NCBI RefSeq assembly: GCF_001447785.1
Contig: NW_015165830.1
Span: 2,535,303 to 2,599,302 of the forward strand
Direction of reading: 5' to 3'
Origin: Gekko japonicus
Lineage: Eukaryota
Length of the DNA: 64,000 nucleotides
This document shows positions 1,983 through 62,612 of the stretch, piece by piece (position 1 is the first letter of the stretch; every line of letters begins with the position of its first letter). Position numbers and translations under genes: made by a program. A model generated the notes under the pieces. The model was not told where the DNA came from and searched no databases. It saw only the letters and a list, made by a program, of their open reading frames with translations.

Positions 1983-2111
1983 GTAGAGCAGGCAGCAACA
2001 GGGCTTCTGGCCCTTGGCTTGAAAAAAGGTGACCGACTAGGAATGTGGGGTCCGAACAAGTACGAATGGACCCTAATGCAATTCGCCACAGCTCATGCAG
2101 GAATCATCCTG
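1983..2111 (+). CDS. ACSF2: ACSF2 internal coding exon ([43 protein letters not shown])
   Basis: ccag|GTA...CTG|gtaag; 129 nt, phase 0/0; matches the ACSF2 AMP-binding domain segment [13 protein letters not shown]. Confidence 0.95.
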
Positions 2112-3145
2112 GTAAGTTGTTGTTGTTGTTTTTAATCCAAGGGCTGCCTACAGATGGGGAAGGGAGCCTGGATATGTAAAAAATGACCAGCCCCCAAAGA
2201 GGCTGGCCAGTCAGCCTGTTTCAAATGCCCCCTTTTCACCATCCTCTATCTTCCCCATCTACCCCCTCTCCATCCTTGAGCCCCCTCCTCCTCCTCCTCT
2301 CATAGCATAGTCCTGAGAAAAGCAGTTCCTTTCACCTGTTGCAGTTCCTCTGCCTGCTAATGAGCTGAGCATGTTTCCTTAGCTTGGTGCCATGTAAAAC
2401 ACTTCATGTGCTCAGGGCTTGTTGGGGCTGCTTATGCTCCTGGTGCTACCCCAGGGGGTGCTGGGTGGGTATGAAGTGAAGTTGTTTTGTTCCCCCCCCC
2501 CCGTCTGTAGCCCCTGTGGACTCTTCCTTCATCTCTGCTTTGTGTAGCACAGGTCAGTTTTCTTCCCTCCCTCAATTTCCTTCCTGACTCTTCATGTACC
2601 CAGATCAACTGGGTTGCACGGGCTGCTCCCAACCTCCTCCCCAGCTGATGTAGAGGCTGGTCTCCCTTCGTGCTTTCAGCTGGCTCAACCACAAAAAGCA
2701 CATAGGGAGAAAAGGTACCACACAGTGCTTCCAACCTGCAGTACTCAGCTAATGAAAGGCACAGCCCACTTGTTTCTCTCTGCAGGCTGCTGGATTAGTA
2801 GCCCACCCCCAGCAGAGCCTGCAAGTAATAGAATGGGGGCAACTTTACATACTGGTAAATTTTCATGTGAGTTGATGATGACACCCACACCCCTTTGTAA
2901 AGCCAAAAAAGTAAAAAAAGATTGCCTTCCTTTTGAGTAATATGGTATTAAAGTGTTTGCATTTTATAAAAAGTAATTGCATTCTTTGTATAGAGAGGAA
3001 TGATCTGGCTTTTCTTTTCCTCATGAAAAGAAACACAAAAAGTTGCATACTTTCCCACCAGTATGCATTGGTCCAACAAAAGGGAGTCTCCGACCAATTC
3101 CACACTGACATTGTTGCCACTCGTTTTTCCCTATTGCTTTGGTTC

Positions 3146-3416
3146 CAGTTTGGTGTAGTGGTTAAGTGTGCGGACTCTAATCTGGGAGAACCGGGTTTGA
3201 TTCCCCACTCCTCCACTTGCAGCTGCTGGATGACCTTGGGCAAGCCATAGTTCTATCAGAGCTGTTCTCTCAAGGGCATTTCTGAAAAGAGCTCTCTCAG
3301 CCCCACTTACCTCACAGGGTGTCTGTTGTGGGGAGGGGAAGGGAAAGGAGTTTGTAAGCCACTGTGAGACTCCGAATGAAGGGCGGGGTATAAATCCAAT
3401 CCCTTCTTCTTCTTCT
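3146..3416 (+). mobile_element. tRNA-derived SINE (Squam3/Ther1-like) with (TTC)n tail
   Basis: A-box tggtgtagtggt, B-box-like ggtttgattcc, core ctctctcagccccac...cctcacagggtg, tail tataaatccaat(cttc)n; 4 similar copies in the window. Confidence 0.85.
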
Positions 3417-3531
3417 CCCCCCTCCCTTTTTCCACAGGTGCTTTGCTCCCTCTGGGACTACTAGAGAGAGCAAATACTTTTTTGGGGGGGACCCTGAAGC
3501 AATAGGGACAAACAAATGACATAAATATCAG

Positions 3532-3899
3532 CAGGGCTTTTTTGGTAGAAAAAGCCCAGCAGGAACTCATTAGCATAATAGGCCACACCCAACAGCAGAA
3601 ACTCATTAGCATTTTAGGCCCCCCCCTGACAGCACACCTCATTAGCACATTATGCCACCCCCCCATGCTGTCCCTTGGCTTGCCCGGGCAAGCCGTCCCT
3701 TGGACAGGCTGGGGAAGGCATGGGGAGGTATTTAAATGCCTCCCCAATGCTTCCAGCCCCCCCCCGGCCCATCCGTTTCAGATTTGCCAGGGGGGGGTCA
3801 CTCTCCAGGCCTTCCCTCTGTAGCCACGCATGCAGAGGTTTTGGCTGCAGTAGGTCTGGCCAACTCTGGAGCCAGCTGGAACTCGGTTCCGGTGCATTC
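3532..3899 (+). mobile_element. hAT-like MITE family (CAGGGCTTTTTT terminus); right end lost in an assembly gap
   Basis: Homologous to the full copy at 53975-54352. Confidence 0.8.
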
Positions 3900-4101
3900 N
3901 NNNNNNNNNNNNNNNNNNNCAGTGTGGAATTGGTCTCCATCTAAGACAGCTAGATCTGAGACCAGTAGCTCCTTAGAGACCAACAAGATTTTCAGGGTGT
4001 AAGCTTTTGAGAATGCAAGCTCCCTTTGTCAGGTAGCACTTGAATCTAACTGTTCTACTGCAGACCAACACAGCAACCCTCTGATACTATCCATCTAAGA
4101 C

Positions 4102-4619
4102 TAGGTATGGGAACAAACCAAACCACAAAGCTAAATTCGTCATGAATGTTGCCGTTTGTGGTTCACAAACAGAAATTCGTGACAGGTCTACCATCACGAA
4201 CTTCCATGAACTTTCAAAGCAGTTTGTGGTGGTTTGTGGTGGTGCATGGATAGAGCAGAAAGCAGGGGTTTACAGTCCCTTTTAAACCCTGCTTTCTGTT
4301 CCCTGTGAAAGCTGCAAATAGAGCTGAGCAGCCGGGAGGTGCTCCCCACCTCTCTGCTGTTTCGGGCTGCATTCTGCAGTCCCATTAAAGTTTAACAGGT
4401 CTACAGAAGACAGTCCAAAACAGCTGTGGGGAGCAGGCTGGTCCCAGTCGCTCAGCTGTTTTTGGCTTTTTGCAAACCCTGTTTAAAGGGACTGCGGTCC
4501 CTTTCAATGGGGTTTGCAGGGCCAGAAACCACGGACTGGTTCAGTTCGCAAATGAACCTCCCAGTTCGATCTGGTTTGTGGTTCAGTTCATGGTTTGGCC
4601 CGGTTCGTGCCCATCCCTA
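4102..4619. mobile_element. hAT (Ac-like TAGGGATG terminus) non-autonomous element, 8-bp TSD tctaagac
   Basis: taggtatgggaacaaacc ... ggttcgtgcccatcccta; tctaagac at 4094-4101 and 4620-4627. Confidence 0.85.
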
Positions 4620-4969
4620 TCTAAGACTGATTTTGTAAGTGTCACTTGCAGTGCTTTTGTGTTTCTCTTCTCTATTGGTGATCATGCACAAAGGACAGAA
4701 ATATACTTTTAAATTTGTGTGTAAAATGTTATAGATTGATGCAAGAAAGTGGATATACAATTGCATTCTGGTGTGTCTTCAATTTTTGTGTTATCTTTGA
4801 ACACACAAATGCATTTTTGGTGCTCAGCCACCATTTTTTTCATAGATGTACAAGCATAATCCCATTATGAATGGGGTTTCTAACATTGGCCAAATTTGCA
4901 TGCTTCATTTTACAAACTCAGTAATATAGGATCTCTGACTTCTCGACCCAGCCTATCATTGTGTTACAG

Positions 4970-5388
4970 CAGAGGTCCCTAACCTTTTCAATCCTGTGGG
5001 AGCCTTTAGAATTTTGAGAGAGGGTAGTGAGCACTGCCCAAGAATGGGTGATACAGGAGGTGCAGCCAGATCTACAATGGAGCCAAATGCAATGCTTCTC
5101 TTCTTGCTTTGCAAAAGAATTTCAGAAGGGGAATAAAAAGAAGCAAAAGAAAGCCCAAGGGGAGAGGGACAAACATGAGGAGGAATAAAAAGAAGGAAAG
5201 CCTGAAGGGGGAATGAAACCACACACAGACTAAGGAAGGCCTGGGTGCTTACCAGTGTTCCTGATCCTCCAGTAGTTGTGGCTGTTGTTGTAACAGTGAA
5301 AAACCTCATTTGAATGAGGGCAGCCTGGTTTACAATGGCCCTGCCCACTTTCTAAAAAGCTCAGCCGAAGTCACATTGGGGAACCCTG
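4970..5388 (+). mobile_element. hAT-Charlie-like non-autonomous element
   Basis: cagaggtccctaaccttt ... ttggggaaccctg termini; related to the element at 13011; no clear TSD. Confidence 0.55.
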
Positions 5389-5452
5389 TCTTTCAACACA
5401 CATTTTGAGGATAAAATATTTGATTCCTTTTGCCATTTCTTCATTTTTCCAG

Positions 5453-5506
5453 GTTTCTGTGAACCCAGCATATCAAGCTAATGAGCTGGATTTTGTGCTG
5501 AAAAAG
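5453..5506 (+). CDS. ACSF2: ACSF2 coding exon (VSVNPAYQANELDFVLKK)
   Basis: tttttccag|GTT...AAG|gtatg; 54 nt, phase 0/0; VNPAY motif of ACSF2. Confidence 0.95.
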
Positions 5507-6249
5507 GTATGAAAAACCTACTGCAGTCACAGATTTTTGCAGTCTCTACAGCATTTCTGAAAGTGCTGGATGATTTGGCTATATATAGTGTTTGTTAGAG
5601 TAACTTGGTTTGGAAAGAGGTATAGAAAAATGAAACTCAGGTGAGCAGTAGGGAANNNNNNNNNNGCTAAAGTGTTTTGAGCATTTTAATATAGAAAAAA
5701 AAGATGATTAGGGGGTACAGGAGAGAAAGATTTACTTCACACTCCCACAAATGCGTGCTGGAATTTCTCAGCTACAAATTCCAGTATGGTAAGCCATGTT
5801 GTCCTATTTCAGCAAAAAGAAAATAAGAGATTAACAGGTTTCTTGAAATGAGTCCGCTTCACCAGATGTGTGAAGTGACTGAGACTTACATAGAAGAAAA
5901 AAACGTTGGGAAGAAAGGCTTAAAAGACCTTGTTTATGACATTTCTATGCAGAGTTTTCAGGAATAATCACTATGCTTATCTAAGTCCTTTTGAATTTTG
6001 TACAGAAGTGTCANNNNNNNNNNNNNNNNNNNNNNNNNNNNNNNNNNNNNNNNNNNNNNNNNNNNNNNNNNNNNNNNNNNNNNNNNNNNNNNNNNNNNNN
6101 NNNNNNNNNNNNNNNNNNNNNNNNNNNNNNNNNNNNNNNNNNNNNNNNNNNNNNNNNNATCTTGCCCGAGAACTCACTTCATGCATCTGATAAAGCAGGC
6201 TCAGGTCGATGAAAACTTATGTTGCAATACATTTTTAGTTTTGGTCTTC

Positions 6250-6620
6250 AGATGAAGTCCACTGGCAGCTGATGGACAAAAACACTTTTGCAGAATTCAA
6301 TACCTTATGATGTGGTGATGGCCATTATCTTAGATGACTATTTTTAAAGGAGCGAATTTAGAGTCCAGTGTCATTTAAAGGATTAGACAAATTCATCGGA
6401 GGATTGGTCCATCAGTGGCTATTACCGTGATACCAAAATGGAACTTCTTTGTTCAGAGATCGTATGCCTGCAAGTTCCAGATGCTGGAGACAAGCCACAG
6501 TAGAAGGCTGCCTCTATCATGCCGTATGTATGCTCTTCCCAGGGACAACTGGCTGGCAAATGTTGGGAGACAGACTGCTAGACTAAGTAGACATATGTTC
6601 AAACCATGCAAAGCAAAAGC
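6250..6620 (+). mobile_element. Old CR1 LINE 3' fragment
   Basis: gatgtggtgatggcc...ggattagacaaattcat resembles the CR1 3' ends at 43354-44278. Confidence 0.55.
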
Positions 6621-7598
6621 TTTTGCAATAGTTTGTATAGGACAGTACTTTGTATTTACAACCAGGAGGAAGGGAATTATTCTATACAGATCAAGCCTGA
6701 TCATCCACATCTAATTACTTGAATTGTCTGGGTTTACTGAATGACAATATTCTTTACATGCCCGAAGTCTTCCCAAGGAGGGCTCTTGAAGTGGAAAAGT
6801 CTGCAATGTCTCTTGATGTAGAAAAGTGAGAGGCTGCTGAGTAAAGACTAACAATCTAATAGCAAAATACTGTGCACTAGGAAAGACCGTATATTATCTG
6901 TAGTGCTAGGTGAAACCAAAGGTCTAGAAAAGGGAAATTCCACTCTGAGGTGTCTCTCATAGTAAAGACCGACATTAGCATGTGTTAGCAGAGTCTCCAG
7001 GTAGCATTTATCTGTCTCTACAGAGAGACACATCATTTCATGAGGCTGTATGAGCAGAACACAAATCTACATTAAAGGGAAGATCAAATGTTTGGTTCCA
7101 GTCAAGGCTGTGGTCTGTTTTGGCACAGCCAAATTATTTTCAGTGGAGGCAGAGACTCAGTGTCCCGTTTGGGAATCCTGCACCAGAAATAAAACTACAA
7201 TAAGCTGTGAGCAATCTGGCACAAGACTCCTGCTAGACCAGATGAAATATATATCTAGTAATATATTCTGTTTCCCAAGCTGTCTCTCCAGATGTTTTTG
7301 GAGCCAGCCAGGTCGGGATTCCACAAATGAGTCCAGAAGTACTTACTTTTGTTTGTCCTGAGCTATTGCCAATCAATTTCACTGGGTGATTGAGAACACA
7401 ATGCACAAAAGGGGACAATTTGTGATGCTAATACAAAGGGTTTTCCTTGATTATAACCAAACAGGTAAAAAAAGATTAAGGGTGAACTCAGGTTACTGAG
7501 CCCCCCCCCTGAAATTTGCTGAGAGTCATTCCACATGTCCCCAAGTTGTGATACAGCAGTCATTAACCCATTGAGTAGCTAATGCTGTGTCCCAAGAG

Positions 7599-8253
7599 CA
7601 GGTCTGTAGCCAGGATTTATTAAATGGGGGGGGGCTTTAAATAATTCAGGGGGCACTGAAATTAAAATAAAAAGGGTTTGAATCAGGGCCTTCCAAAGAG
7701 TTGACTTCCAGCCCCAACTGAGTCCAGGTGCACTCTGGGGGGGGGACAGTTTTGAAGTTCCCCTTCCCTTGCCCCCGCTGCTCAGACACAGGGCTGAAAC
7801 ATGAGTTGTCATCCTGGAGCCCCGGGATGAAGGAGCACGCCTGCCTAGTCTGTGTGTGGACACCCCGCCACCAGGGGGCCCGCTCCCTGCTCCAGAAAGA
7901 GGGTCTGCAGCCCCCACTGCGCCTCACCGTTGTGGTGGGCGGCAGGTGGGCGGGCAGGCAGGGGTGCTCGCTCACTCTGTCCAGCATGGGAGGGACTGGC
8001 TGGGGCTGGAGACAGTGAGGCGGCCACCAGGAGCAGCCTGGCCAGGGGCGGAGTGGAGCACCATGGGGTAAGGCAAGGAGAGGGAGGAGGGCTGCACTGG
8101 GCCACTGGGCACTCTGCCCACTGGCCAGCCAGTGAGCTCATCTCATCTGGGGCCCGCCTGGTTGCCTGCCTGCCCAGGGTAGTAAGTTGGGGGGGCTCTG
8201 ATGGAAAGTCGTGGGGCTGGGCCCAGAAATGATCCAATGTAGCTATGGGCCTG
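7599..8253. mobile_element. GC-rich hAT non-autonomous element, 8-bp TSD cccaagag
   Basis: caggtctgtagc ... gctatgggcctg imperfect TIRs; cccaagag at 7591-7598 and 8254-8261. Confidence 0.85.
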
Positions 8254-9599
8254 CCCAAGAGAGACAGAGAGCAAAACAAAATCCCAATATTTAATGTGGA
8301 AATTAGTAATTCAAAGCTTAACTATACAATACATTGTGTATGGGCTCACTCCATGTCTACCGTGAGTCCTGTCAACCAGACATGCAATAGGACATGAAAC
8401 TTAATTCTCAATTATGCAAAGGCACACTTCAGATTGGGGCTAAGGTGGTCAGGGAGACGAAGTTTATACTCCTCCCACTAGTTCCCCAGACTGAAATGGC
8501 TCCCAGGAGTTTCCATTTCCCCCTTTAATGAAACTAACATGTATCGATAGATTTTCATGTAAATTTCCCCAGCAGGGCAAATGGTGCCTCTCCAGGGTTC
8601 TTTCTATTCATAAAAATTGTATATGTGGAAAGATTTAAGTTTCCAGGCACCATGGTCCTGATCTGCCCAAAAACAATGTATTGTGTAGTTAGGCCCTCAT
8701 TTCCCTAAGCAATTTTGATCGTTGCCAGGCAGGGAAGATAGCATGGACTAGCCCAATCCAGTTTCTTTTGTTTAGTAGAGAGAGATTAAAACTCTTGTGT
8801 ATTTTGTGAATAAAATTAATCCTGCCAGGATGAAAAGGCCCTTTGTGCTTGTTTGTCTTGTTTAGCTTTAGAGCTCAGAACCTCAAATTCAAATACAATT
8901 CAGAGATCAAATACAAATGTGGCAGTTCATGTTCCCGTGCTATGTGCTGGCTGGCCTCCTTGCTTTCCCGCATGCTGTGGGAAACACTTTGGAAACTATA
9001 AGAAAGTCAGAATCAGTCCTAAATAAGCCTTTTGTTGAACAGGCAAATTTGTATAGTTCCAGTTTGACCTGTGAAATTTGTATCGTTTTTTTAGTTCATT
9101 TATGACTTCTTCCCATCAAGTTTTTGTTTAAACCAAGCATTTAATATGCACTGTAATGGTGCAATACTACTCAGTTATACCCTCCTAAACCCATTGACTT
9201 CAATGGATTTAGAGGGATACAATCTAAACGATCTGATATTTCCTAGCTTTAGAGTGCACACTTTTCACTTAGTTTTATTTTAAAATTTATTTAAAACACT
9301 TGTAATACACTGTTTTCTGGAAAAAGAGAGAATGGCTTACAGAGAATTAAGATTCGAAAACATGCCAATATGTTAAAACAACTACCCATTCAAATAACAT
9401 AAGTAATTAAAACACAGGACCTAAATAAAAACTCATCATAAAGTCAGACTTTACACTTACTACTTAACCACCCTTGAAAGCCCTCTTGAGCAGAGGACCA
9501 GTGAAATAAATGTACTAGACAGAACAACAATAGGATGGCAAATGAGGGGCATGTGTGGCGATTAAGGGCCCGAGGGAGGAGAGGGTTGCTGGAGATGTA

Positions 9600-10042
9600 A
9601 ACACATTATAGGTGTCTTTATACCAATGCTCTCTGAGCCAAGATGAGGGAGCTGGAGTGCTTGGTGCTTAATGCAAATTCAGATATAGTAGGTATTTCAG
9701 AATAAGGAAAATCTATGGGATACAATCATTCCTGCGTATAAACTCTATAGGCAGGACAGGGAGGGATGGGTTGGGGGGCGGTATTATGTTGTGTATCAAA
9801 GACGGCATAGAATCCAACAAGTTAGGAAACATCTGGGGAATTAACTCCCCAACAGACATGGGTGGAAATACTGGGCCCTAAGGGTTACTTAAATGTGGAG
9901 GTGTAATATCCCCCACCTGATCAAACTGTTGAGGCTGATCTTGAGATGGAGAAGGAAATAAGGGAGGTGACTAAAGGAAATAATGCTATTATACTATATT
10001 ATATTATACTATTATAATATTATACTATATATTATAGGCGAC
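9600..10042 (+). mobile_element. CR1 ORF2 endonuclease N-terminal fragment with an internal AT-rich microsatellite (9987-10035)
   Basis: Colinear with 40010-40430 (gagctggagtgcttg, gtaggtatttcagaa, cacctgatcaaa). Confidence 0.7.
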
Positions 10043-10198
10043 TACCTAACTGGCCTCTATGGTCGCATCGGCCCTGTTACCACACCTACCCCAGCGAGTC
10101 ATGAGGAATTCTGCTCACTGTTTTCTCTGCAGTATACTATTTTATAACCTGTTTTCCAAGATACTTTCTGTATCCTGATGTCCCTTCTGTTTCTTTAG

Positions 10199-10317
10199 GT
10201 TGGCTGCAAAGCAATGGTGTTTCCCACGCAATTTAAAACACAGAAATACTATGAGATCTTGAAACAAGTTTGCCCAGAGCTGGGACTGTCTAATCCTGGA
10301 GCACTAAAAAGCAAGAA
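10199..10317 (+). CDS. ACSF2: ACSF2 coding exon (VGCKAMVFPTQFKTQKYYEILKQVCPELGLSNPGALKSK)
   Basis: ttctttag|GTT...AAG AA|gtaag; 119 nt, phase 0/2. Confidence 0.95.
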
Positions 10318-10859
10318 GTAAGTGCTACTTGTGCCTCACCTCACAGGCCACTTCCAAGCCCAGTTCTTATGCACTGTTTTAACCATGGTAAGGTGCCACA
10401 TTTGTCAGGCATGCATCAAAGTAAATGTCAAGGTGAGGGTGATCAGGAGCCATGTGCTAAAGGGAAATTTGATGTTAGTAAAGCTTGCTCCAGTTCTGGC
10501 ACTGTTTCACTGCTTGCCACATTTTCTTCTATGCAGTTTTCAATAGTGCAGAAGACCTAAGTCAGTAAAGACTGGATATGTGAAAAATATGTAAATGTAT
10601 CCAGAACCACAGACCCATGAGAATGTTACAGAAAATATGCATAGCTGGAAACACAGATCTTAAAACCAAATTGTATTCAACACTCTCAAACTTCCACAAG
10701 TTAAACAAGTATATAAAACTAATCTGTATAATTGTATCAAGCGGTTCCCATAGCAGTAGAATTTCAGAGAGTTTGGTCCACACCCCAGCAGCCTGTTCCC
10801 AGACTATATTCCTGTTTTCTCTTTTCCTCTGCTATTGACCATTCTGTCCACTGTATCAG

Positions 10860-11022
10860 CCTACCAGAGCTTTCAGTTGTAATCACCCTGGACTCCAAGC
10901 TTCCTGGCGCATTCCAGATGGCTGATGTGATGCAGGCTGGAGACAGCAGCCACAAGAAGCAGCTGCAGGACATACGGAAGACGCTGGTCTGCCAAGAGCC
11001 CATCAACATCCAGTTCACTTCG
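10860..11022 (+). CDS. ACSF2: ACSF2 coding exon (LPELSVVITLDSKLPG...CQEPINIQFTS)
   Basis: atcag|C CTA...ACT TCG|gtggg; 163 nt, phase 2/0; begins the AMP-binding signature IQFTSGTTG.PKG. Confidence 0.95.
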
Positions 11023-11235
11023 GTGGGTACAGCATGCGCCATTTTGTCACCATTTGTATTCAGAAAATACAAGCGGTGATGTCAGGAATAGCATACTGTG
11101 TGCCGTAAGAACTTAGAATTTAGAAGCTAAAAAATAGTTGTACAAACCACATACATTTGGTTTATATTTATTTTGGGGGGACAATTTCTTTTCTTTTAGA
11201 ATAGTTGGGGTTTGCAGAATCTGGAATATCTTGAG

Positions 11236-11720
11236 ATGGGTGTGTGTTAAGTGCTGTGAAGTCACTTCCAGTTTGTAGCAACCCTATGAATTGACATAGA
11301 GTTGGACTCGACTGTGCGGCTGAACAACAACAACAACATGAATTAACAACCTCCAAAACATCCGAATTTTGAGAGCCTTGGTCAAGTCTTGCAAACTGAA
11401 GACCATGGCTTCCTTTATTGAGTCATTCCATCTCATGCTGGGTCTTCCTCTTTTCCTGCTGCCTTCAACTTTTCCCAGTATTTGTGTCTTTTCTAGTGAG
11501 TCTTGTCTTCTCATAATGTGACCAAGTTAAATAGCCTCAGTTTAGTCATTTGAGCTTCTAGGGAGAGTTCACTGATTTGTCTTTTTGGTGGTCCGCAGTA
11601 TCCATAAAACTTTCATCCAACACAGCTTTTAAAATGAATCTATTTTCTTCCAGTCAGTTTTCTTCATTGTCCAACTTTCACACCTGTATATAGTAATAGG
11701 AATACTAAGGCATGAATTAG
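11236..11720 (-). mobile_element. RTE/BovB-clade LINE 3' fragment
   Basis: Minus ORF MRRQDSLEKTQILGKVEGSRKRGRPSMRWNDSI is the typical RTE ORF2 C-terminus. Confidence 0.8.
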
Positions 11721-11997
11721 GAAGAAGAAGATATTGGATTTATACCCTGCCTTTCACTACCCAAAGGTGTCTCAGAGCGGCTTACAAACTCCTTTCCCTT
11801 CCCCTCCCCACAACAGACACCCTGTGAGGTAGGTGGGGCTGAAAGAGCTCTGACAGAAACTGCTCTTTTTCAAGGACAGCTCTTATTAGAGCTATGGCTT
11901 GCCCAAGGTCATCCAGCCAGGTGCAAGTGGAGGAGTGGGGAATCAAACTCGGTTCTCCCAGATTAGAGTCCGCGCACTTAACCACTACACCAAACTG
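11721..11997 (-). mobile_element. Squam3-like tRNA-derived SINE
   Basis: Reverse complement of the 3146-3416 family; gaagaagaag tail. Confidence 0.85.
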
Positions 11998-12589
11998 TGT
12001 AGGATGGGTCTTAAATGGAGCTATAAAAGGCACAGAAGTTCCATTTACAAATCTTACCAGGATTTGTCCAGATTTTCTTTTGTGTCTCAACATTTTCACG
12101 GATTAGTTGACATATGTCTTCATGCCATAGACATTTTGGGCTAGTAGAAGCTTCCCAAGAAGCAAGAGCAAGCAGCTTACCATTTGGTTACTTGGGAACC
12201 CTGTGGTATATCCTTCTACCTTTGAGAAATTTAAAACAGGGCCTTCTGGCCTGGTAGGCAAAGCGGCAAGTCTGATCATAGGCCTGGTCTACACATGCAG
12301 TAGAGTTAGGTAGTAGAATCCTAAGGCACTAGAATGGGCTGTACCACTTCAGACTATAGGTAGGNNNNNNNNNNNNNNNNNNNNNNNNNNNNNNNNCCTG
12401 CTAATAAACCTTTAGTATGTTTAGGGTGAAAGGATTGATGTGCAGGGCAGGTCTCCTGTTTTTTTGAACCACAAGTAGGTCTTAGGCTGTATTTTTAACA
12501 CAATGTTATGTGTTGGTTTTAAAGCACTGCTTGTAAGCATGGAACAGGGTGGGATTTCAATAAATAAATGCCTTTTCTCTTTCCTTCAG

Positions 12590-12685
12590 GGAACAACAGG
12601 AAGCCCCAAAGGGGCCACACTTTCACACAGCAACATTGTGAATAATGCAAACCTGATTGGTATAAGGCTGGGAGTCGATAAAATG
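12590..12685 (+). CDS. ACSF2: ACSF2 coding exon (GTTGSPKGATLSHSNIVNNANLIGIRLGVDKM)
   Basis: ttccttcag|GGA...ATG|gtaaa; 96 nt; P-loop TSGTTGSPKG of adenylate-forming enzymes. Confidence 0.96.
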
Positions 12686-13010
12686 GTAAAACAACTTAAT
12701 GTGTTGGTCAGTGTTGAAATCAGAGATTCTGACTAAAGAATAATGTCTCCTAAATAATTCATATATTTGTATGTTACTTTTATCCTCACTGAGGAGCCAA
12801 AGTGGCTTACAGCATCAGTCTCCCTAACTGTCTCCATTTTGTCCTCACAACAATAACCCTGTCAGTTGGGTTAGGTTGAGAAAGAGTGGCTGGCCCACGG
12901 TCACCCAACGAGCTTCCATGGCAGAGTAGGGTTCTTTATTATTGGATTTATATCCCACCCTCCCTGAAGGCTCCTAGCTAGATCCTTGTCCAGCCCACTT
13001 ATCACTACCC

Positions 13011-13980
13011 CAGGGGTCTTCAACCTTTTTAAGCTTGTGGGCACCTTTGGAATTCTGTGGTGGGCCCAACCACAAAATGGCTGCTGTAGGAGGTAGAAAC
13101 AGCCACAAATTGTCAGAGAACGAACTTAATGTATAACTGTAACTCTTCAACATTTCAGGCAGAAGCTGTGTTTAACAGGATGCCTTTTAAAATTAACATA
13201 TTATTGTCAAGCTCAGGCCTCACTTGTCATAGAATGTTGTCTAGCCAAACTCATGCTCTGTTGCATTAGGGGCTAACTACTTTCTCAGTCATGCTTATTT
13301 CACTGTTTTTGTCTACAAGTATTCTGGGCTTCACTGCTGTTTATCTTCTCTGCTAGGAAGGGGGGGAGTGGATGTGTGTGTGCATGTCTGCTTAAGCTTG
13401 AATACTGCCAGCTTGTAGCAGTCTGTGAGACCCTGGGAAGTGTATGATCTCAGTGTCCAACACGACCTTGTAACGTGGAGAGCTTCTAGATAATGTAACT
13501 GTTAGTTTGCAGGTGCTGGGGACGGCCATAAGGGCAAGCTTGGATCTTTGGTGGGCTGGATGAGAATACTGATTGGGTGGTTGGCATGGGGGGAGATGTT
13601 CTGCTTGCAGTATAGGGTCAAAACTGGCATCCGGAGGCCAGTTCCGACACAGAATCTGTCTATGCTTGGAATCTCTCTACCTCTCAATAAACATATCTTG
13701 CTGCTACAAGAGTGTTGTGGGAGTGATTGCATCCAGGACTTGACAATTATTTAAAAATGCTTTCTTGCATATACACAAGTTACCTTACACACAGAGAAGA
13801 TCTTTGTGCTGTGGTGGCAGCCACTGCTGAAGCAACATTTTTTAAAAATCTACGTAGCCAATTAGATTTCCAATGGCCATTCAGAAGTCCTGATGGGCAG
13901 AAGCCCCACCCACTTTCTAAAAGCACTTGGCAGGTGCCAGGAAAGGTGTCACCATGGATGGCATGCTGGAAACTGCCACT
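13011..13980 (+). mobile_element. hAT-Charlie-like element interrupted by a solo LTR
   Basis: caggggtcttcaaccttttt start as at 4970; homology resumes after 13750; right boundary approximate. Confidence 0.55.
13205..13745 (+). mobile_element. Solo LTR, 541 bp, 5-bp TSD attat
   Basis: TGTCAAG...CTTGACA inverted ends, AATAAA near the 3' end, attat at 13200-13204 and 13746-13750. Confidence 0.85.
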
Positions 13981-14412
13981 CTATGCCATGCTGACTGTCA
14001 TGCTATCTGAACATCTTCAGTATTTTCTCTATGAATTGAGGATTCGTAAATCTTATCTTTCCCCCACACAAAGTGCAGCAATAATGGTTGTGTACATGCC
14101 ACGAGGCTCTAGTTTTCTAGTTGCTTGGCTTATACAACTAACTTGAGTGCCTCATATTCATATCCTGTAGAAATTACAGATTGCCATGTTGATTTCTGCA
14201 TATGATTGTATAGTAATGAAATTTTATTATTATCAGAGAGGGATAGGTACTGAATAAGTATAGCTCTTCAATGTGCATTTTTCTCCTGATTTCCCATTCA
14301 TGCAACCCCAGTTCTTTTCCATTCACCTCTTGGTGGCCCCGCTTAATCTCTGTCATAATAAGATGTAGGAATGGTTAACACCAACACTGGAAGGTGAATC
14401 TATGATGACTAT

Positions 14413-14800
14413 TGTAGTGTATTCCAAAGCTGCCATGGAATGCATGATGTATGTGAAACATCTCATTGATTTGTAATGTTAAGCTTCATCCTGGGCTAGG
14501 ATCCAAATACATCCAATAGTATTGCTAGCCCAGGAAGTAACAAGCCAATCACTTCGCAGCAAGCTCCCTGAGCGGGAATGGCCGTGATTGGTCCTTATGT
14601 GAACAACCTTATTGGTTGGTATTTGTACAGTGGGTGTGGCTACATTAGCCGGGAATGTTTAAAAGCAGGACAGCAGCAATGTAAAGGCTGTTCTGGCTAT
14701 CAGATGTTGATCCGTGTTGGAGTTGTGTTTGAGTTGAAGAATAAAGTTGTGTTCTTGCTGAATCACTCTCCGACTGCTTTGTTAAGCGAGCGACTTAACA
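14413..14800 (+). mobile_element. Solo LTR, 388 bp, 5-bp TSD actat
   Basis: TG...CA ends, several CCAAT/ATTGG boxes, tttaaaa, AATAAA (~14739); actat at 14408-14412 and 14801-14805. Confidence 0.8.
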
Positions 14801-14822
14801 ACTATGTTTTCCTTGATCCTAG

Positions 14823-14971
14823 CAAGCCCGCTGTTGTCTTCCTGTTCCTCTCTACCACTGCCTGGGCTCTGTGGCAGGGTGCATGGTGATGGCAATTCAT
14901 GGTGTCTGTCTTGTCTTCCCATCTTTAAGTTTTGAGGCTAAAGCTTCACTGAAGGCATTGGAACAGGAGAA
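14823..14971 (+). CDS. ACSF2: ACSF2 coding exon (QARCCLPVPLYHCLGSVAGCMVMAIHG...KALEQE)
   Basis: gatcctag|CAA...GAG AA|gtaag; 149 nt, phase 0/2; PLYHCLGSV motif. Confidence 0.95.
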
Positions 14972-15587
14972 GTAAGTGACTCAAACATTAAAGGTTTGAA
15001 TACTGTCAGGAACAACACTCATTTTGTGCTTCTGGTGCCACTCATCCTGGGCTTCTGTGCTGTTCATGTCTCTTTTGAGGCACAATGATCTTTCCATTGA
15101 CCAGTGGCAAAAGAGATACCTGATGCTTGTTTTCTCTGTCCCCTATGAATGTAGTAACAAATCACAAATGGATGCATACTGTGTAACGTCTAAGGCTTGT
15201 GACTGGGATTTGATACGATATGGAAACTATTGTGCCTCAGTAAGGATGTGACAGCCTTGAAACTAGGACCCAGCAGTTCCTTCAGAAAAATAAAAATAAA
15301 AAGAACAGTTGCCTGTAACTATCCTCCCTTTGCCCATGTGCTTATGGAAAGATAGTTGGATTTGAATGTCATGAAATCACTCTGAATTTTTACAGTGTTT
15401 AGTTATTTCAGGCATTTGCTGCTTGCCCCAGAGCAAGCAGCAGAGCAGCTGATATGCAGCCAGTGAACATTTTTAAAACAGAAAAAGCACCTTGTTTACC
15501 CTAGGTGTTCTCCTCTCTGGGAGCATCCAAAAAAGCAAGAGAGGGTAAATAGTAGTGCTAGTCTAGTTATGCCACTTCATAGTCCTT

Positions 15588-15750
15588 AAAGGTAAAGGTA
15601 AAGGTTCCCTTGCTCGAAAGCCAGTCGAATCCGACCCTAGGGTTGCGGTGCTCATCTCTGTTTCAAAGCCGAAGAGCCAGCACTGTCCGAAGACATTTCC
15701 GTGGTCATGTGGCCGGCATGACTAAACACCAAGGCACACGGAACGCTGTT
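15588..15750 (-). mobile_element. Sauria (Squam1) SINE 3' part
   Basis: (ACCTTT)n tail on the minus strand; homologous to 37474-37738. Confidence 0.8.
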
Positions 15751-16212
15751 CAATCTAATTTTGGTGTGATACTGCTGGACTCTGTCAATAGATTCCATTC
15801 ATATCCGGTTGTTGCTCTCCCCCCCCCCCCCCCCCCCCCAGCTCCAAATCAGGCCTTTATTTCTACCACAGGTTTGAATATAGTGTAGCTTCAGATTGTC
15901 TTCATAGTATCAGACAGCACCATATCAGAGGGTTCGGGGTTCTTCTTGTATACTTCTGGAAACGAATAAAGAGTTGAAGGTTTTTTGGAGATGGGCTGGG
16001 TCAGTTGATGAGATGTGTACGGAACCTGAATGCTCATTTGCCTTTACACTTTGGAAANNNNNNNNNNNNNNNNNNNNNNNNNNNNNNNNNNNNNNNNNNN
16101 AGGCAACATTGAAATATTATACCCAAACTCCAGATTGGGTGGAGGACATACTTGTGCTCACGTGCGTGTCCCAGCAAACTGTAATTTGTTTGTCTTTATT
16201 CTTCCTTTGAAG

Positions 16213-16304
16213 ATGCACCCATGTATATGGCACTCCAACCATGTACATAGATATGCTAGGACAGCCTGACTTTGATACCTATGATCTCTCAAGTGTTCGG
16301 GGAG
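16213..16304 (+). CDS. ACSF2: ACSF2 coding exon ([30 protein letters not shown])
   Basis: ctttgaag|A TGC...GGA G|gtaag; 92 nt, phase 2/1; YGTPTM motif. Confidence 0.95.
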
Positions 16305-17120
16305 GTAAGTGTGAGGATACTAAGCCTTTAAGTGGGTAGAGCTTAACATAGATCCTACAGGGCAGATGAGCAGAGTCATGGCTGAAGTAGCAAGTCAGTC
16401 TGCTCTTTCTAATAGTGATTTCTAAGTTATGTAAATAGTCAGTAAAGTTTATCTTATTTTTCATCCTGAAAGTTATTCATAAAGAATGTGACAGTAAGCA
16501 CAGAATCAGACATTTCGATTGATTTTGAAAATTCAGCTGCTTAAATGTCATTTCTGCTAACCAATTAATGTAAATTTGAAGACATTGATATGTGTTGATT
16601 AGTACATTACCCAAACCACAATGCATGTGCCTTTTTGAGCTGTTGAAGGAAGTGTGAAATGGCTAGCAATCTAACAAACATAAGCTACCATTTATGATTA
16701 GAAAGAAAGATTGTCTATAAGTTTAACTTTTTTCAGTCTCTATTACAGGAACTAAAACTTGAACCAAAATAGCTTTCAAAATAAGGAAGTATAACCATAT
16801 AGCACAGTCTCACTATTTAAAATCTCCCTTCACCCAACTAAAATTAGTCCTGACTGATCAAAGAGTTACAGCTCAAACAATTTCAATGATCAGAAGGTTG
16901 CAGGGATGGGAAGCTGCCACCATGCCTGTCACTTTAAGATCTTAGGCAAAATCTGATAGACCCACCTCTGCTACTGTCTGTCATGCACACACATCCTTCA
17001 TCCAACTCAATAGGCAACCTAGCCCAATTGAAAGCCAACCTACACATGACGCAGTCCTTTTGCACCTGAGCCTTCTGAGGAGAACGCAGGCTCTCTTAAG
17101 TATTTGGAAAACTGGAAAGA

Positions 17121-17223
17121 GGGAAGTTGCATATACCATGTAGAGGCAAAGAAGAGTTGCATATAACTACATGTAGAGGCAAAGGGAAGTTGCATATAAC
17201 TACATGTAGAGGCAAAGAAGAGT
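17121..17223. repeat. Three tandem 30-33-bp units (..agttgcatataactacatgtagaggcaaa)
   Basis: Units at 17121-17150, 17151-17183 and 17184-17216. Confidence 0.9.
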
Positions 17224-17235
17224 AGAGTAGAAGAG

Positions 17236-17428
17236 TAAACCATAGAGTTTTCCCTCGGATGACCGTGGCCCCACCCCAAGCGTGCCCGGCGTGGCCGCAT
17301 CACTTCCGGGTGACGTGGACGTTACGTACTTTGGGGGTGGGGTTCCCCCGGGGCCCAATCTGTGCCAGCGGGGAACAGGCCTCTGGGGTGGGGGTTTCCC
17401 CGCCACCCGGGGGGACTTGGGAAGCCTA
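17236..17428. mobile_element. CpG-rich DNA-transposon remnant (Blackjack-like end)
   Basis: aaccatagagtttt...catcacttccgggtgacgt...cttgggaagccta, a degenerate TGGCAACCCTA-type end. Confidence 0.45.
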
Positions 17429-17961
17429 CTTATCAATGTTGCTAAAATGATCTCCCCCACCCCCCGCTAATGACAACTGGAAAAGGCAGTACTAGTAACT
17501 CCTCAGAGTTTTATCAGTTTTTTTATAATCATGCCCCCTTGCATGGATATGTGCTGTTTTCTGCTCTGGCTGGTGCTATATCAATTTGGTGATGCCTTTT
17601 GGAGGAGAATCCCTATCCTCCTCTCTGGGGCTTTATGATTCACTCTTGTGTTCCTGCTGTGACTAGAGACACTGCCTGAAACTTCGACATAGGAAAAGCA
17701 TGGGAACCAGGGTGAGTCTCATGACAGGATAGCACTGTTAGGCAGCTAAACCCTTTCTTGTTGGCTTAAGCTGATGATTAAGGACACAAATGTGTGTTAT
17801 GTATTCTTTCCACTTACACTTTGGTTTACACAGGCTGTATTTCTCCATGCAGTTGCTCTTAAAATGTTTTTGAGTACATGATCAATGAACAGTAGCTTCC
17901 TTACCCCAAGTGGCATTTTAAGAACAATTGAAATAATGGGAATAGTAGGCCTATGTGCACA

Positions 17962-18149
17962 TGAAGCTGCCTTACGCTGATTCAAACCTCTGGTCTATCG
18001 AGATTAGCACTTTCTGCTCTTAACTGTTGGCTCTTCAGGGTCTCAGGTGGTGGTCTTTCATATCACCTGATACTTTTTAACTGGAGATACCAGGGATTGA
18101 GCCTGGGACCTTATGCTTGAAAAGCAGGTGCTCTGCCACTGAGCCATGG
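17962..18149 (-). mobile_element. tRNA-derived SINE with CR1-like tail (Squam2-like)
   Basis: Minus strand: tggctcagtggcagagc (A box) ... ggtcccaggctcaatccc (B box); family name is an inference. Confidence 0.65.
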
Positions 18150-18469
18150 GCACACCCTGTCTTGTTTGCTGAGATCTGAATAATCAGATTCTCCATTATG
18201 TTTCTTCACTTATTTGTATGAAAGAGCAGTAAAGTGGAGGGAAGCAATCAGCAGGATGTGTTTGTGTGAACCAGCCCCCAAGTAAATTGATGGCAAGCAA
18301 TCCTCATCCAAAACGTGTGTTTCTTTTTTGTTGTTAATCATTTAAGGTTTCCAGGATTCCCCCCCTGCCCCTCTAGTTGTTGCTGAAAGCACAAGGAGGA
18401 CAATGTTTTCTTCTTCATTATGTTGTATGCTAATACACTCCTACCTATATGTATGGACTGGTAACTTCC

Positions 18470-18710
18470 ATTTCATTGTATCTGAAGAAGTGTGTGTGCA
18501 CACAAAAGCTTATACCTTGAATAGAACTCTCTTGGTCTTAAAGGTATCACTGGGCTCAAACTTTGTTCCAATGTAGATCCAGGTAATCAGCTGTGTTGGT
18601 CTGAAGCAGTAGAACAAATGTAGACCCCAGTGGCACCTTTAAGACCAACAAAGGTGTATTCAAGGTATGAGCTTTCGTGTACATGCACACTTCTTCAGAT
18701 ACATTGAAAT
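18470..18710. mobile_element. Penelope-like terminal repeats in inverted arrangement
   Basis: 18470-18570 and 18585-18710 are reverse complements (ttggtcttaaaggt / acctttaagaccaa); each carries a hammerhead-like core. Confidence 0.75.
18665..18702 (-). ncRNA. Minimal type I hammerhead ribozyme motif, intact core
   Basis: Minus strand: GUAU-CUGAAGA-A-GUGUG(CAUG)UACAC-GAAA-GC-UC-AUAC; stem I GUAU/AUAC, stem II, palindromic AGCU stem III. Confidence 0.7.
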
Positions 18711-19142
18711 GGGACGTAAGGTTCAATCTTACAGACAGGCTGAACAGTAAATCAACATGTAACATGATGAAGATGTTTTAAGATATGCAAAACCAGAATT
18801 AAATAACAAGCAAAGGTTATAAGGTCAACAGTTGTAAAGCAATAAATATGTTAAAATAAGTCTGAGACTCTCCATTCACTCCCAGAGCGTGTTCCAATGT
18901 TTTATTCTGGTTTTATTCCTACGTCTACCAGCATGTGGCAGCAGATGTTACGTGCACTGTGATGCTGCATTCTGTATCCATCCTTATATCAAAATGAATG
19001 GAAGTCGTTCAAAAGAAGTCTTTGCAAACAGACATCATGCTAACAAATTGTTGATGTTATGTTAATAATAATATAATTATCAGTGTTAATTAAAAATGAA
19101 AGCTGACAGCCGTGAGCTGCTAGCAACAACGAACAAACTGCG

Positions 19143-19312
19143 CTTTAAGACCAACAAAGTTTTATTCAAGCTGTAAGCTTTCGTGTATCTGAGGAAGTGT
19201 GCTTGCATATGAAAGCTTATACCTTGAATAAAACTTTGTTGAACTTAAAGGTGCCACTGGACTCAGACTTGGGTTCTGCTCCTTCAGACCAACGTGGCTA
19301 CCCACCTGAATT
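19143..19312. mobile_element. Second Penelope-like inverted repeat remnant
   Basis: ctttaagaccaacaaagttttattcaag ... cttgaataaaactttgttgaacttaaagg inverted pair. Confidence 0.7.
19185..19222 (+). ncRNA. Minimal type I hammerhead ribozyme motif, sense to the ACSF2 pre-mRNA
   Basis: GUAU-CUGAGGA-A-GUGUG(CUUG)CAUAU-GAAA-GC-UU-AUAC. Confidence 0.6.
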
Positions 19313-19537
19313 TATCAAATTCATTGAGACTGTTTATACTGATGCCAACTTGGTTGTGTCAAAAACTCAGTTAACTTGGGAAATTTCCAGGCTCAGATTG
19401 AGGTTTACCTTTTAATGGAAGAATAAGCATAAAGACCATACCACATATTGAAAATGTAAAATGATAATTTAAAAAGGGCCCTTTAGAAGGTTGCAAAGAA
19501 GACATCTTTCTTTTTGTTTTGTTTTTTTCATTTTCAG

Positions 19538-19614
19538 GAATCATTGCAGGGTCACCAGCACCTCCTGAAATTATTAAGAAGATCATGAAGAAGATGAACA
19601 TGTGGGAAATGGTG
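19538..19614 (+). CDS. ACSF2: ACSF2 coding exon (GIIAGSPAPPEIIKKIMKKMNMWEMV); last ACSF2 exon found in the window
   Basis: ttttcag|GA ATC...GTG|gtaag; 77 nt, phase 1/0; AGSPAPPE motif. Confidence 0.95.
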
Positions 19615-21389
19615 GTAAGTCAATTTCCATCTTTCCTTTAGTGCAATGATCTTTGGTGGACTTTCTTTGTGTGCCTCTCATGGTCAGAAATATTGTGTGA
19701 AGGTCAGGACTTCAGTGACTTAGAAGGATGTAGCTCTACTTAGGATTGCACTGTAGATCTCCCTCCCAAGGGAAGTTTGCTTCATTCTGTTTCTGGTGGT
19801 GTTTTGGCATGACCACTCCAGGCAAAATTGGAGCTTTTAGGCGCTACTTTTATTTTTGGCTTCTGTTCTTTGCTATGGGATTCTTGGGGCTTAAACAGAT
19901 GAACTTTGGGAGTTCTGTGTCCAGAGATCCCTGCATTTTTATAAGCTCAGTTTTCACGTGTGCAGAAGCCTGATTTTGATTGGGGCTGTGGCATGAGGGC
20001 AGGCCTTTTAAAGCCTTCCTCCTCACTGTTTTCCTGATCTAAAATGGCCCCAAGGGGTTGCTTTGGGGACAAATGTAGGTATATCTGTATCTGTACTGGT
20101 GTGTTTCCTAAGTGGGGGAATGAGGAGATCCTTGGGGTGATTTTAGAATCTAGAAATGGTGTGTGGGGAGGGTCTGGACTGGGCCACTTCAGGCCTGATA
20201 ACTTTAGACGCTCTGAGGCTCTGGAATTGCAGCTCACAGCACACATCTGCAGTGGCTCTCAGCTTGCATTCTACTGTTGTTTTGGTTTTGTTTGGATTTT
20301 AATTGCCATTGTTTGTTTTTTATTGGCTATCGTCAGGCTCCTTGGGGATGTTATAAAAGTTAGAAAGTGGGATGTAAATATTTTCATAAATAAATAAAGA
20401 ATAGCATAAGGATTTGGACTCCCTATTTGATTTGTAAATTTCCACTAAAAATACCAAGTCACACATCTAGTTTGGGAAATGAATATCCAGCTGAACTCTG
20501 AAGGAATGCAGGAAATTCTAGGAACAGCAACAGATAACTTGGGGCGGGGGGACATGGGACAGATACTGTACAAATTGTCAACGTTTTGGAGAATTTTCTT
20601 GAAACTCAAGCTGAGCATTGTTTACATTTATTTTCTGGTTATACTGGACTTTTCCCCCCGTCCATCGGAATATGCTACTTCAAATTTTCATGCCTCAGTC
20701 CCATAAGGATAAGTCCTTACTAGGAAAAGTGCTTAGATGTTTTCATGCAAATCCAGCCAAGTTGGTGGCGTTCATACTTGCATTGAGCCCCCCCCCCCCC
20801 CCCCCCGCGCGGGCAGATACAAATACATACTTCTGTTTACTTTTCTTGCTTCTGAGTGTGTGAGTTTCTAATAGAGCAATCCTGGGTGGGGGGAATCATT
20901 ATAGGGAGCCAACTGACCCCAACACCAGTGTAAGTATGGGTTACATTGGAACAAGGGTGGTTTATCCTGGAATAGAGCACCAGTGGCACCAAGTTCCACT
21001 GGCGCAGGAGTGCCGCAGCAGCATGCCAGCAGAGGAATGGCATGAACCCTGCTGCTGGCATAGATGTGGGCATGCCTGGGGGTGTGGAAGCAGTTAGGCA
21101 GCTTCCGAAGCATTTTCAGCATGGGAATGCATCCCTGGGCAGGCACAAAGTTGTGCCGGCAAAAATGGTGTTGCAGCCCATTGTCAGTCATTGTAACTCC
21201 ACATTCACTCCCCCCCCACACACCTGCCGCCATGCCCACAGGACCCCAAACAGCTCAGGGTACTGACTCAGGTCATGCTCCCCTGCTCCAGCTGTGCTTC
21301 CCCTCAGGACCCAGTCACAGTGCCCCCCCCCCAAATGGTTTCAGGAGGATGCCCCTGAATTCTGTAGGTAGGGCATGAAAAGCTGTCTG

Positions 21390-33012: not shown

Positions 33013-34446
33013 TGTTGTAACTTTGGCCCTTTTCTTCTTTGTAGAGCCACTGTAGTCAATGTCTTTGTACTGTAACTGACTAGCTCACACAGTGAATGCC
33101 TTTCTGGGGTTATTTTAGGTGCTCAGCCATTTTGCAGGCTTTGTGAGGTTTGCCCTTCTTCCTTAACATCAGCAGAAAGTCAGGAGACATGAACAAGAAG
33201 AAAATGATGTTTATGTCAAGCAAAATGATGTTGCCAGGCATGTCAAGTGAGGGAGAGGAACGGAGGATTCCACTCCTTTTCTCTACCTGTGTTCCACTAT
33301 TCCTACTCCTCTGCTGACATTGAAGCCATTGTCTCAAACACAGCAAGGTTTTCCAAAACTGGCACTGTGCTTTCTTCCCCAGCTGAACAAAGCTATCAGG
33401 TTGTGAGGAGTAGATAACCAAACCAGAAGTTCTGCTGGGACTGTGCACTTTTGGGTAGCTTCCCAGTGTCAGGGGTGGTGAGTGGGGCTTGCTGTATCAC
33501 AGTATTGTTCCTATGTGCAGAATTTTAATTTTGCTTTCTAGGAATACATTTTATGGGAGAATTTAAAGGTTTGCACTTGAGGAATGCCATTGGGGTGGGG
33601 CTTAAACGTGTCCCCTGCTACTAGCTTTTTCTATTTCTGGAGTTAGGAACCAGCTGTGTCCCAGATTACAGCTTTTACCTGTGGAACTTGGTGGCAGCAA
33701 CTGAAAACCATGCCAGCCCTGTATTCTAAATACTGTAGTAAATTGCTAAATGCCTGTCGTCATAATAGTTGGGGCATGTGTGAAGACAGAGTTACGGTGT
33801 CAACATGCAGCACTTTCCCCCGTAGAAATAACTTGCAACTTAATTATTTGGAAGACAGTGAATGGGTGCATTTGGGAACTATTTTTTGGGGGGGAGGGGT
33901 AAAATCCTGTCCCTGATGAACCCAGCATTGAGAATTTGCTCCTATCTCCTTAGTCTTACCCCTAATTTCTGTATCTTGATCAGTATGATGGAATGCTGGA
34001 AGAATGGGATGGAATGTTGAAACCTGGCATATATGTGGGTTGGTCCCTGTGAGGAATGGGAGGGATGTAAACAGTTGGGAAAACTCTCCCAGTCATAAAT
34101 CTTTCAAAATACTATAAGCCCTAAAAGGCTCAAACAGGCTAGTTTCTCCTCCCTGTTTTGTTTCCCTTTATATTCTGTGCTTCCTAGAAGGCAGTGAACA
34201 TGCTCGGTTCTTATCAGGACAGGTTAGAGGCTTTGTTTCTTCTTATACTTCATTTGAATTGCCAAAATAATTCTTTGTGTTCTCAGGAAATCCCCTAAGC
34301 ATTCAGGGACTCCCGTCTTTTCTGTGGGTAGCCCTGTTTTATTGCCTCACTCGTAGACATACAATATGAAATTTTGTTATTGGAGAAAATGAACAAATGG
34401 ATACATAATTCTAGGAAGACTAAAAGGAATGCCAAGGAGCTCTTAC

Positions 34447-35232: not shown

Positions 35233-35336
35233 AGAACTGAAATGGATGTGTAGGGAAGAGGAGGAGCAGCAGCAAAAGGAGGAGGGAGAAAGGGACGTGA
35301 AGGAGAGAGTGAGTCTGCAGCAAGCTGAACACAGCC

Positions 35337-56445: not shown

Positions 56446-56758
56446 ACGTCTACAAGAGAAACTTGCAGAGACATGTGTCTCCATGGAAGGCCATGCAGAG
56501 TGAGTGATAGGACAAAGTGAGAGAGGAGGGGTCAGAGGACAGCTCCCAGGTTAACACAAAGAGAGGCATCCTATTCAAGGAGGTAGCACCTATGCACCCT
56601 TACTGTGATGTAGCGCCCCCCCCCCCTCATGTCCAGGCACACTGAGTTGCTCAGTTCAACATTCCCTCTCAATTCTGTATGCCTTCAAGGTTCATAATGT
56701 TCAGGTTGTCCTGCAGGCCTTGGTATTTGTCTCTTGGTAGCGGTTTGGTAAATATGGC

Positions 56759-62192: not shown

Positions 62193-62612
62193 GTAAAATA
62201 CTTATTTGTACCTTTCCTAACCTGTGGTATACATTGTATCTGAGCTTCCAGGATTGTAATGTTAAATAGTCTCCAAGCTTCCTGAAGGGATTTAACCCTC
62301 CTTACCTTTCCTTTCAGTTTCTTCTTCACAAGCTCATTCATTTGAGAGAAGTTACCCCTTCTAAAGTTAAATGTGGTTGTGTTGGTCTTTTGGGGAAACT
62401 CCCTGTTTACATAAATGCTAAATTTAATAGCATTATGGTCACTGTTCCCAACCGGAGCTATCACGTTAACATCTCTCATCAGGTTTTCAGCATTACTTAG
62501 GACCAAGTCCAGGATTGCCTCTCCACTGGTAGCTTCTGTGACCATCTGCTCCATGGCACAGTCATTGAGAGTATCCAGAAACCCAATCTTTTTTTCCTGA
62601 CGAACACATATT

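Follow-up and report, generated by a model that had tools for sequence, protein, structure and literature searches.

A sense LTR at the predicted branch point of an ACSF2 intron in Gekko japonicus, and the likely use of its 3' end in splicing

Introduction

Branch points supplied by transposons are already known for new exons. According to the accessible parts of PMC7951965, the pseudoexon of F8 intron 18 has a predicted branch point in LTR78 (LTR78 and AluJ), and a GPR143 pseudoexon takes a partial branch point from L1 (L1MD3). Both are cryptic exons activated by mutation, whereas the ACSF2 exon described here is old and constitutive. In addition, LTR78 in F8 is an old antisense element that supplies the tract and the AG as well, while the ACSF2 LTR is apparently young and sense, and the host tract and AG stay. 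Exonised inverted Alus, with 154 mapped branch points in the portion of PMC4315302 searched, offer a likeness, as the element consensus likewise carries a ready-made branch motif. However, those cases concern new exons, an antisense SINE and lariat-mapped sites, and the present one concerns an existing exon, an LTR terminus and a site that is predicted only.

Reporters of OGDH intron 4a with MIR insertions provide another parallel, since nearby insertions can add or remove branch points, and the Alu consensus has roughly one URA motif every 30 nt (PMC7969005, in part). The OGDH work used an engineered reporter and distant branch points, whereas ACSF2 presents a natural insertion at canonical distance. 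Zones in which elements are under-represented near acceptors have also been described, and the ACSF2 LTR falls in the most depleted class (LTR, sense, acceptor-adjacent); those are mammalian statistics from a paper whose searched parts lack the word "branch" (PMC3088655), while the ACSF2 locus is a survivor with a testable reason. The literature searched, largely outside subscription journals, yielded no natural case of a constitutive exon whose branch point an LTR has replaced, and the supplementary tables of PMC4315302 may hold human cases.

Materials and methods

The window is the whole 64,000-nt stretch of Gekko japonicus DNA analysed, and negative positions count back from the first base of the exon at 14823. 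It was compared with eight of the 24 sequencing runs listed, namely DNA runs X1 (organism A, which carries the window's allele), X10 and X11 (organism B) and X16 (organism C), and RNA runs X4, X21, X22 and X23; X4 was taken as RNA by guess, and the read share of X21, X22 and X23 was about 3, 12 and 12 in 100. The difference listing appears to omit letters about 30 nt from a piece end, where both the ancestral U at -2 (14406) and the terminal letters of other LTR copies fall. Branch-point candidates were scored by their possible pairs to the U2 hexamer, using a hydrogen-bond count of our own and distance rules established for human, not gecko; an A qualified for scoring if it lay between -18 and -40 and no AG occurred more than 10 nt 3' of it. 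ViennaRNA gave mostly positive duplex energies for the hexamer, and pair counts were used instead.

Results

The ACSF2 locus

The 50-residue peptide of the 14823-14971 exon is 100% identical to residues 285-334 of P0002, which is Gekko japonicus ACSF2 by its NCBI name, the product of a fatty-acid-activation gene, and at least 25 proteins match it, all reptile among the matches listed and most named ACSF2. By tblastn, eight exons of P0002 lie on the + strand, covering residues 98-392 at 1983-19620. Against Pfam AMP-binding the peptide reached 21.2 bits, under the curated cut-off of 29.9; a PDB sequence search with it gave 0 matches, as did an Rfam scan of 12400-16400. The features around the acceptor are collected in Table 1.

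Several observations concern the wider gene. Exons past residue 392 were not found in 19620-64000, the remaining 44 kb, for which a very long intron or an assembly break could account, and the Gekko kuhli model P0003 likewise stops after residue 392. In the Paroedura picta model P0008 the exon upstream of the 12686-14822 intron is absent, and the previous donor is joined to the orthologous acceptor. An AATAAA at 12559-12564 lies 30 nt 5' of the upstream exon's acceptor, inside the branch-point zone of that intron. At 34423-35250 on the - strand there is a leucine-rich-repeat exon with a signal-like N-terminus (Pfam LRRNT, LRR_8), which we take to be chondroadherin nested antisense in an ACSF2 intron, as in human.

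The window also holds a pair of oppositely oriented LINEs with about 80-86% similarity, at 40129-42426 (+), with a 766-residue open frame for endonuclease and reverse transcriptase, and at about 59424-63066 (-). Diverged direct repeats at 56756-57434 and 61484-62117, about 4.7 kb apart, surround an integrase fragment at 58421-58837 (-) (Pfam rve), and may represent an old LTR element that the LINE interrupts or with which it is nested. At 336-920, within a dispersed repeat, a 15-bp unit is tandemly repeated 39 times with 98% similarity. A short repeat at 15583-15750 shows very high RNA depth, with thousands of reads in both X21 and X23, that stems from other loci.

Table 1. Features around the 14823 acceptor of ACSF2 (positions in the window)
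Feature	Position	Strand	Remarks
Upstream ACSF2 exon; residues 254-284 region, AMP-binding loop TTGSPKG	12590-12685	+	tblastn, RNA contig
2137-nt GT-AG intron, donor GTAAAA, major-spliceosome type	12686-14822	+	joint in 4/4 RNA runs
Predicted ancestral branch site TGATGAC, A14408; now 393 nt farther from the acceptor; 26 AG dinucleotides after it, the first at 14416	14403-14409	+	
5' TSD copy ACTAT	14408-14412	+	single copy in X10, X16
Solo LTR of a high-copy family, in sense orientation to ACSF2	14413-14800	+	TG..CA; family contigs in X1
TATA-like TTTAAAA, 3' of two CCAAT and two ATTGG boxes	14658-14664	+	motif scan, predicted
AATAAA then GU-rich run, LTR polyadenylation signal	14740-14756	+	motif, predicted
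Possible 8-bp hairpin in which candidates -38 and -25 would pair	14779-14801	+	-5.5 kcal/mol in isolation (37 C); with flanks, probability 0.1-0.54 depending on the window folded
Branch candidate -38, TGTTAAG, A14785, score 10	14780-14786	+	
Branch candidate -25, ACTTAAC, A14798; sole yUnAy from -18 to -45	14793-14799	+	
3' TSD copy; A14801 (-22) at the old distance, without U at -2, 4 Watson-Crick pairs to U2 via LTR bases	14801-14805	+	
Host pyrimidine tract and AG; contains TCCTTGAT at 14810-14817, A at -7	14806-14822	+	
149-nt ACSF2 exon, residues 285-334; skipping shifts the frame	14823-14971	+	
Next ACSF2 exon	16213-16304	+	

The solo LTR and its empty site

A first-pass annotation had described a 388-bp TG...CA element with an actat target-site duplication (TSD) close to the exon. 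The element indeed measures 388 bp (14413-14800), starting with TG and ending with CA; the ACTAT copies at 14408-14412 and 14801-14805 are exact with no extension to 6 bp, and 22 host nucleotides lie between the LTR end (14800) and the exon. Among the X1 contigs, 4528 align to 14300-14900, and 148 depart at exactly 14800 into unlike flanks (agreement 0.33), with depth steps at both LTR ends; the LTR therefore belongs to a high-copy dispersed family that ends at 14800, although there is no second copy within the 64-kb window. The annotation's reading as a solo LTR agrees with this dispersed family, with the TG..CA ends and 5-bp TSD, with promoter-like boxes followed by a polyadenylation signal, and with the missing internal region, the flanks joining directly in relatives. 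A full-length element would have recombined to a solo LTR.

Contigs of X1 reach over both LTR junctions with only 27 and 28 LTR letters, the bridging rule being 31. The ACSF2 copy departs from more than 90% of the family depth at four positions (14579, 14581, 14675 and 14730), about 1%; none of the four is within 14731-14800, where letters about 30 nt from aligned-piece ends are outside the listing. At 14675 the X1 depth without the majority letter is 68, against 64 and 69 in the unique flanks, so this letter marks the ACSF2 copy. The absence of X10, X11 and X16 depth over 14699-14782 hints that the 3' part of the family is rare in organisms B and C. In their runs, many contigs match only 14623-14665, the TATA-region stretch of the LTR, which suggests a related family sharing it.

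The empty site that had been reconstructed on paper exists as DNA. The site is covered by X10 and X16, not by X11, and one contig in each of the two joins 14407 to 14801, skipping 393 nt and retaining the 5-mer once, so placed that its 5 letters could be assigned to either flank; the insertion is therefore real and lineage-specific. These contigs also settle the order of events, since CTTAAC arrived with the element and did not predate it. The piece covering 14801-14900 in X16 carries a single difference, at 14832; this being exonic, the last 22 intron bases (14801-14822) are identical. The same piece of X10 has three differences, one listed at 14846, and the other two are probably exonic because X11 has two in 14853-14900. 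The left flank differs from each relative at 8 of 108 nt (about 7%), 2 and 3 of these being listed. As the copy differs from its family by about 1% and its flank from B and C by about 7%, we infer from these sequences that the element inserted recently, in the lineage leading to organism A. No empty contig was found in X1, one DNA run of organism A, which stands for one individual and not for fixation.

Branch-point candidates in the two alleles

It had been suggested that the ancestral branch A likely lay at -22, as the first TSD base, and lost its U at -2 on insertion. The first part stands as a prediction: in the empty allele the A at -22 (TGATGAC) is the top candidate, with a score of 11 against 8 for the next, and our scoring model makes it the inferred ancestral branch A. 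The insertion point is exactly this predicted A, which became the first duplicated base. The second part holds for A14801, the A now at -22, which has no U at -2, but not for the displaced upstream site, which is intact and keeps its U. This displaced TGATGAC is likely unable to serve the acceptor, as 26 AGs lie between them.

In the filled allele, the scores are 10 at -38, 9 at -22 and -25, 7 at -26 and -30, and 4 at -19. For every candidate scoring 7 or more (-38, -22, -25, -26 and -30), the bases at -5 to -1 relative to the A are all LTR, and the only A in -18 to -40 with host-derived bases at -2 and -1 is that at -19. This is largely geometry, because 22 host bases remain and branch points lie mostly at 19-37 nt (90% of human ones in the part of PMC7951965 searched). 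Since all the good remaining candidates (-25, -38 and -22) use LTR bases, branching likely depends on the LTR end.

The yUnAy match attributed to the LTR terminus is present, with A14798 at -25 within TTAAC, and is weak as such (38% by chance); a second yUnAy occurs at -7 in both alleles. A14798 is in the 19-37 nt zone with no AG between it and the acceptor, the nearest upstream AGs being at -33 and -37. In score it ties with -22 and ranks below -38, and its predicted accessibility varies with the folded window: under six of the nine folding conditions its probability of being unpaired is just 0.08-0.13, and under the other three it reaches 0.39-0.68. The hairpin of Table 1 was rejected as a special structure, the region folding no better than shuffles (z -0.48). 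Among the best 15 of 30 joints, from cDNA libraries at a depth of about 10, no back-joint of a lariat is shown. Mixed branch-point use is plausible by analogy, because about a third of human exons (32.4% in the accessible text of PMC4315302) use several branch points. Taken separately, pairing of U2 with LTR bases is highly probable, and a branch A located within the LTR itself is favoured with less assurance; A14798 as the dominant candidate is tentative, at somewhat less than even odds, with -22, -26 and -38 likely being minor or alternative sites.

The strongest competitor is that the old A, now A14801 in the 3' TSD, is still the main branch nucleotide and that the LTR changed only the bases before it. 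Its distance is unchanged, and TAACAAC keeps 4 Watson-Crick pairs, tying with -25 at score 9; it is also unpaired more often than -25, in 6/6 folds at the shortest and longest windows and 3/3 at the middle one, and splicing is described as resistant to branch-motif changes in the part of PMC4315302 searched. However, A14801 loses the U at -2, which together with the A is the most conserved position (same source, in part), and two central pairs are mismatched. This alternative is unlikely, and even with A14801 as the branch nucleotide, LTR bases do the pairing.

Splicing and polyadenylation in RNA

The filled allele is still spliced normally, as the inclusion joint 12685 to 14823 appears in 4/4 RNA runs, with 1, 5 and 3 reads in X21, X22 and X23 and one 2408-nt X4 contig that spans three exons unbroken. 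Depths over the three exons are 10.3, 12.0 and 13.5 in X22, 8.3, 2.3 and 9.3 in X23, and 1.0, 1.2 and 0 in X21; the X23 dip at the 14823 exon counts against full inclusion. Since the joints listed are the best 15 of 30 and joints of 3-4 reads are among the remainder, there may be minor skipping or cryptic acceptors, and exon-skipped RNA would be subject to decay. An AG at 14416-14417, 8-9 nt past the displaced ancestral branch A, is a possible weak cryptic acceptor, and other pyrimidine-rich AGs end at 14572 and 14786; among the joints listed (15 of 30) none of the three is used.

A sense AATAAA about 80 nt before the acceptor was confirmed at 14740-14745 (-83 to -78), and it is followed by a downstream GU-rich element, the combination looked for in a polyadenylation signal. 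The seven introns of ACSF2 hold 16 AATAAA in 16,753 nt. The suggestion of competing intronic polyadenylation found no backing in X22 and X23: reads over the LTR without the majority letter at 14675, that is, with the copy's private letter, number 0/3 and 0/232, respectively, where the ACSF2 exon depth is about 8-13. If an LTR-ended isoform made up 20% of ACSF2 RNA, about 5 marked reads would be expected in the pooled data and the probability of none is 0.006, while at 10% that probability is 0.1, compatible with the data; this bound is rough because coverage drops near RNA ends and library selection is given only as cDNA. In X21, 5/296 LTR reads are without the majority letter, at an exon depth of about 1. 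The RNA-run listing has no place of many molecule ends at the LTR, in a stretch swamped by other LTR copies.

These data bear on a second alternative, in which the insertion does mild harm by provoking partial skipping, or cleavage, in certain tissues, while drift keeps it in place. The best score with U at -2 falls from 11 to 10 or 9, the 14823-exon depth is low in X23, and the marked X21 reads point the same way. On the other hand, X22 shows no drop, the 3 inclusion reads of X23 account for the depth of 3.8 at the upstream exon's end, and the X4 contig is unbroken. We consider mild harm rather improbable.

Chance versus selection

When random window DNA was placed before the same 22 nt, 38% of 19,679 valid draws contained a yUnAy and 82% contained an A with U at -2, and the best filled-allele score was equalled or beaten in 22% of 20,000 random draws. 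At the seven other ACSF2 acceptors, the best candidates with U at -2 score 11, 8, 11, 13, 6, 6 and none, so ACSF2 tolerates weak sites, 3/7 scoring 6 or none. Family copies align through the last base, 14800, in X1 and also in one X4 record, which suggests that the LTR end is the family's ordinary end. With the element reversed, every A between -18 and -45 would lack a U at -2; the sense orientation is the rescuing one here. Because the predicted site of the empty allele scores higher, no gain over the ancestral allele emerged, and the host gained nothing evident. The random rates, the weak sites elsewhere in ACSF2, the seemingly ordinary family end and the better empty-allele site thus argue for chance rescue rather than selection, and the exaptation that the first-pass annotation had proposed is, in the sense of selection, not supported.

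True exaptation would mean that the LTR end is kept by selection, or that it tunes ACSF2 via a weaker branch site, the hairpin or polyadenylation. The material on selection or post-insertion change consists of four near-private differences and one organism-A DNA run, with the LTR-end letters outside the listing. The absence of an empty contig from that run, the location of 0/4 near-private differences within 14731-14800 and the depletion in mammals of sense LTRs and of elements near acceptors (PMC3088655, searched in part) would fit. However, a single individual does not establish fixation, a total of 4 differences over 388 nt has no power, the last 30 nt are outside the listing, the LTR-ended transcript is undetected in X22 and X23, and the empty allele holds a better site; exaptation is accordingly given little credence.

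A U12-type motif at -7

A perfect match to the U12 branch motif, UCCUURAY in the accessible part of PMC4315302, was observed at 14810-14817 despite the major-type donor, and it is unchanged in organism C; it may be chance or a relic of intron-type conversion. A U12-type intron was rejected, the donor used being GTAAAA and not RTATCC and the A lying only at -7, and ACSF2 is not mentioned among the matches listed in the literature on U12-type introns. Branching on host bases common to both alleles (-7 in TCCTTGAT, maybe a U12 relic, or -19), with the LTR irrelevant, is the least probable alternative: the motif has just 7 occurrences on the window's + strand and 14801-14822 is unchanged in X16, but the donor is of the wrong type, zero differences in 22 nt has a probability of 0.18 at the flank rate, -19 scores just 4, and, since the AG is chosen more than about 8-12 nt past the branch point (PMC7969005, in part), branching at -7 would lead to use of the AG at 14825-26, which is not seen among the joints listed (15 of 30).

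Discussion

The insertion, its empty site in two relatives and the continued inclusion of the exon were directly observed. The reading preferred here, to which a probability of roughly 0.7 is assigned, is that a sense LTR inserted at the predicted branch A, that the exon is still spliced, that U2 likely works on the LTR 3' end, and that the rescue was by chance. Under this chance-rescue reading, the LTR would have entered the ACSF2 intron at its predicted branch A, U2 now likely pairs with bases of the LTR 3' end, and the chance rescue probably made the insertion tolerable. The host would have gained no new function, and its dependence on the LTR end would last no longer than the LTR itself.

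A broader idea is that the terminal TTAACA of the LTR family is a portable branch point, so that sense copies landing 18-25 nt before an acceptor both overwrite and replace the host site. This generalisation is doubtful; if true, such copies would survive in a zone that purges most insertions, and the gecko genome would hold a set of old constitutive exons spliced from LTR ends, with ACSF2 as the worked example.

As it stands, the locus is a tidy case study with no new mechanism, since branch points derived from transposable elements are known and the motif is easy to obtain by chance. Should lariats confirm the chance-rescue reading, the locus would provide a natural before-and-after pair, in which relatives retain the ancestral branch site and an essential exon of the gecko is spliced from retrotransposon bases. 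It would show that an insertion can bring about branch-point turnover, and would help to explain the survival of some sense LTRs next to acceptors.
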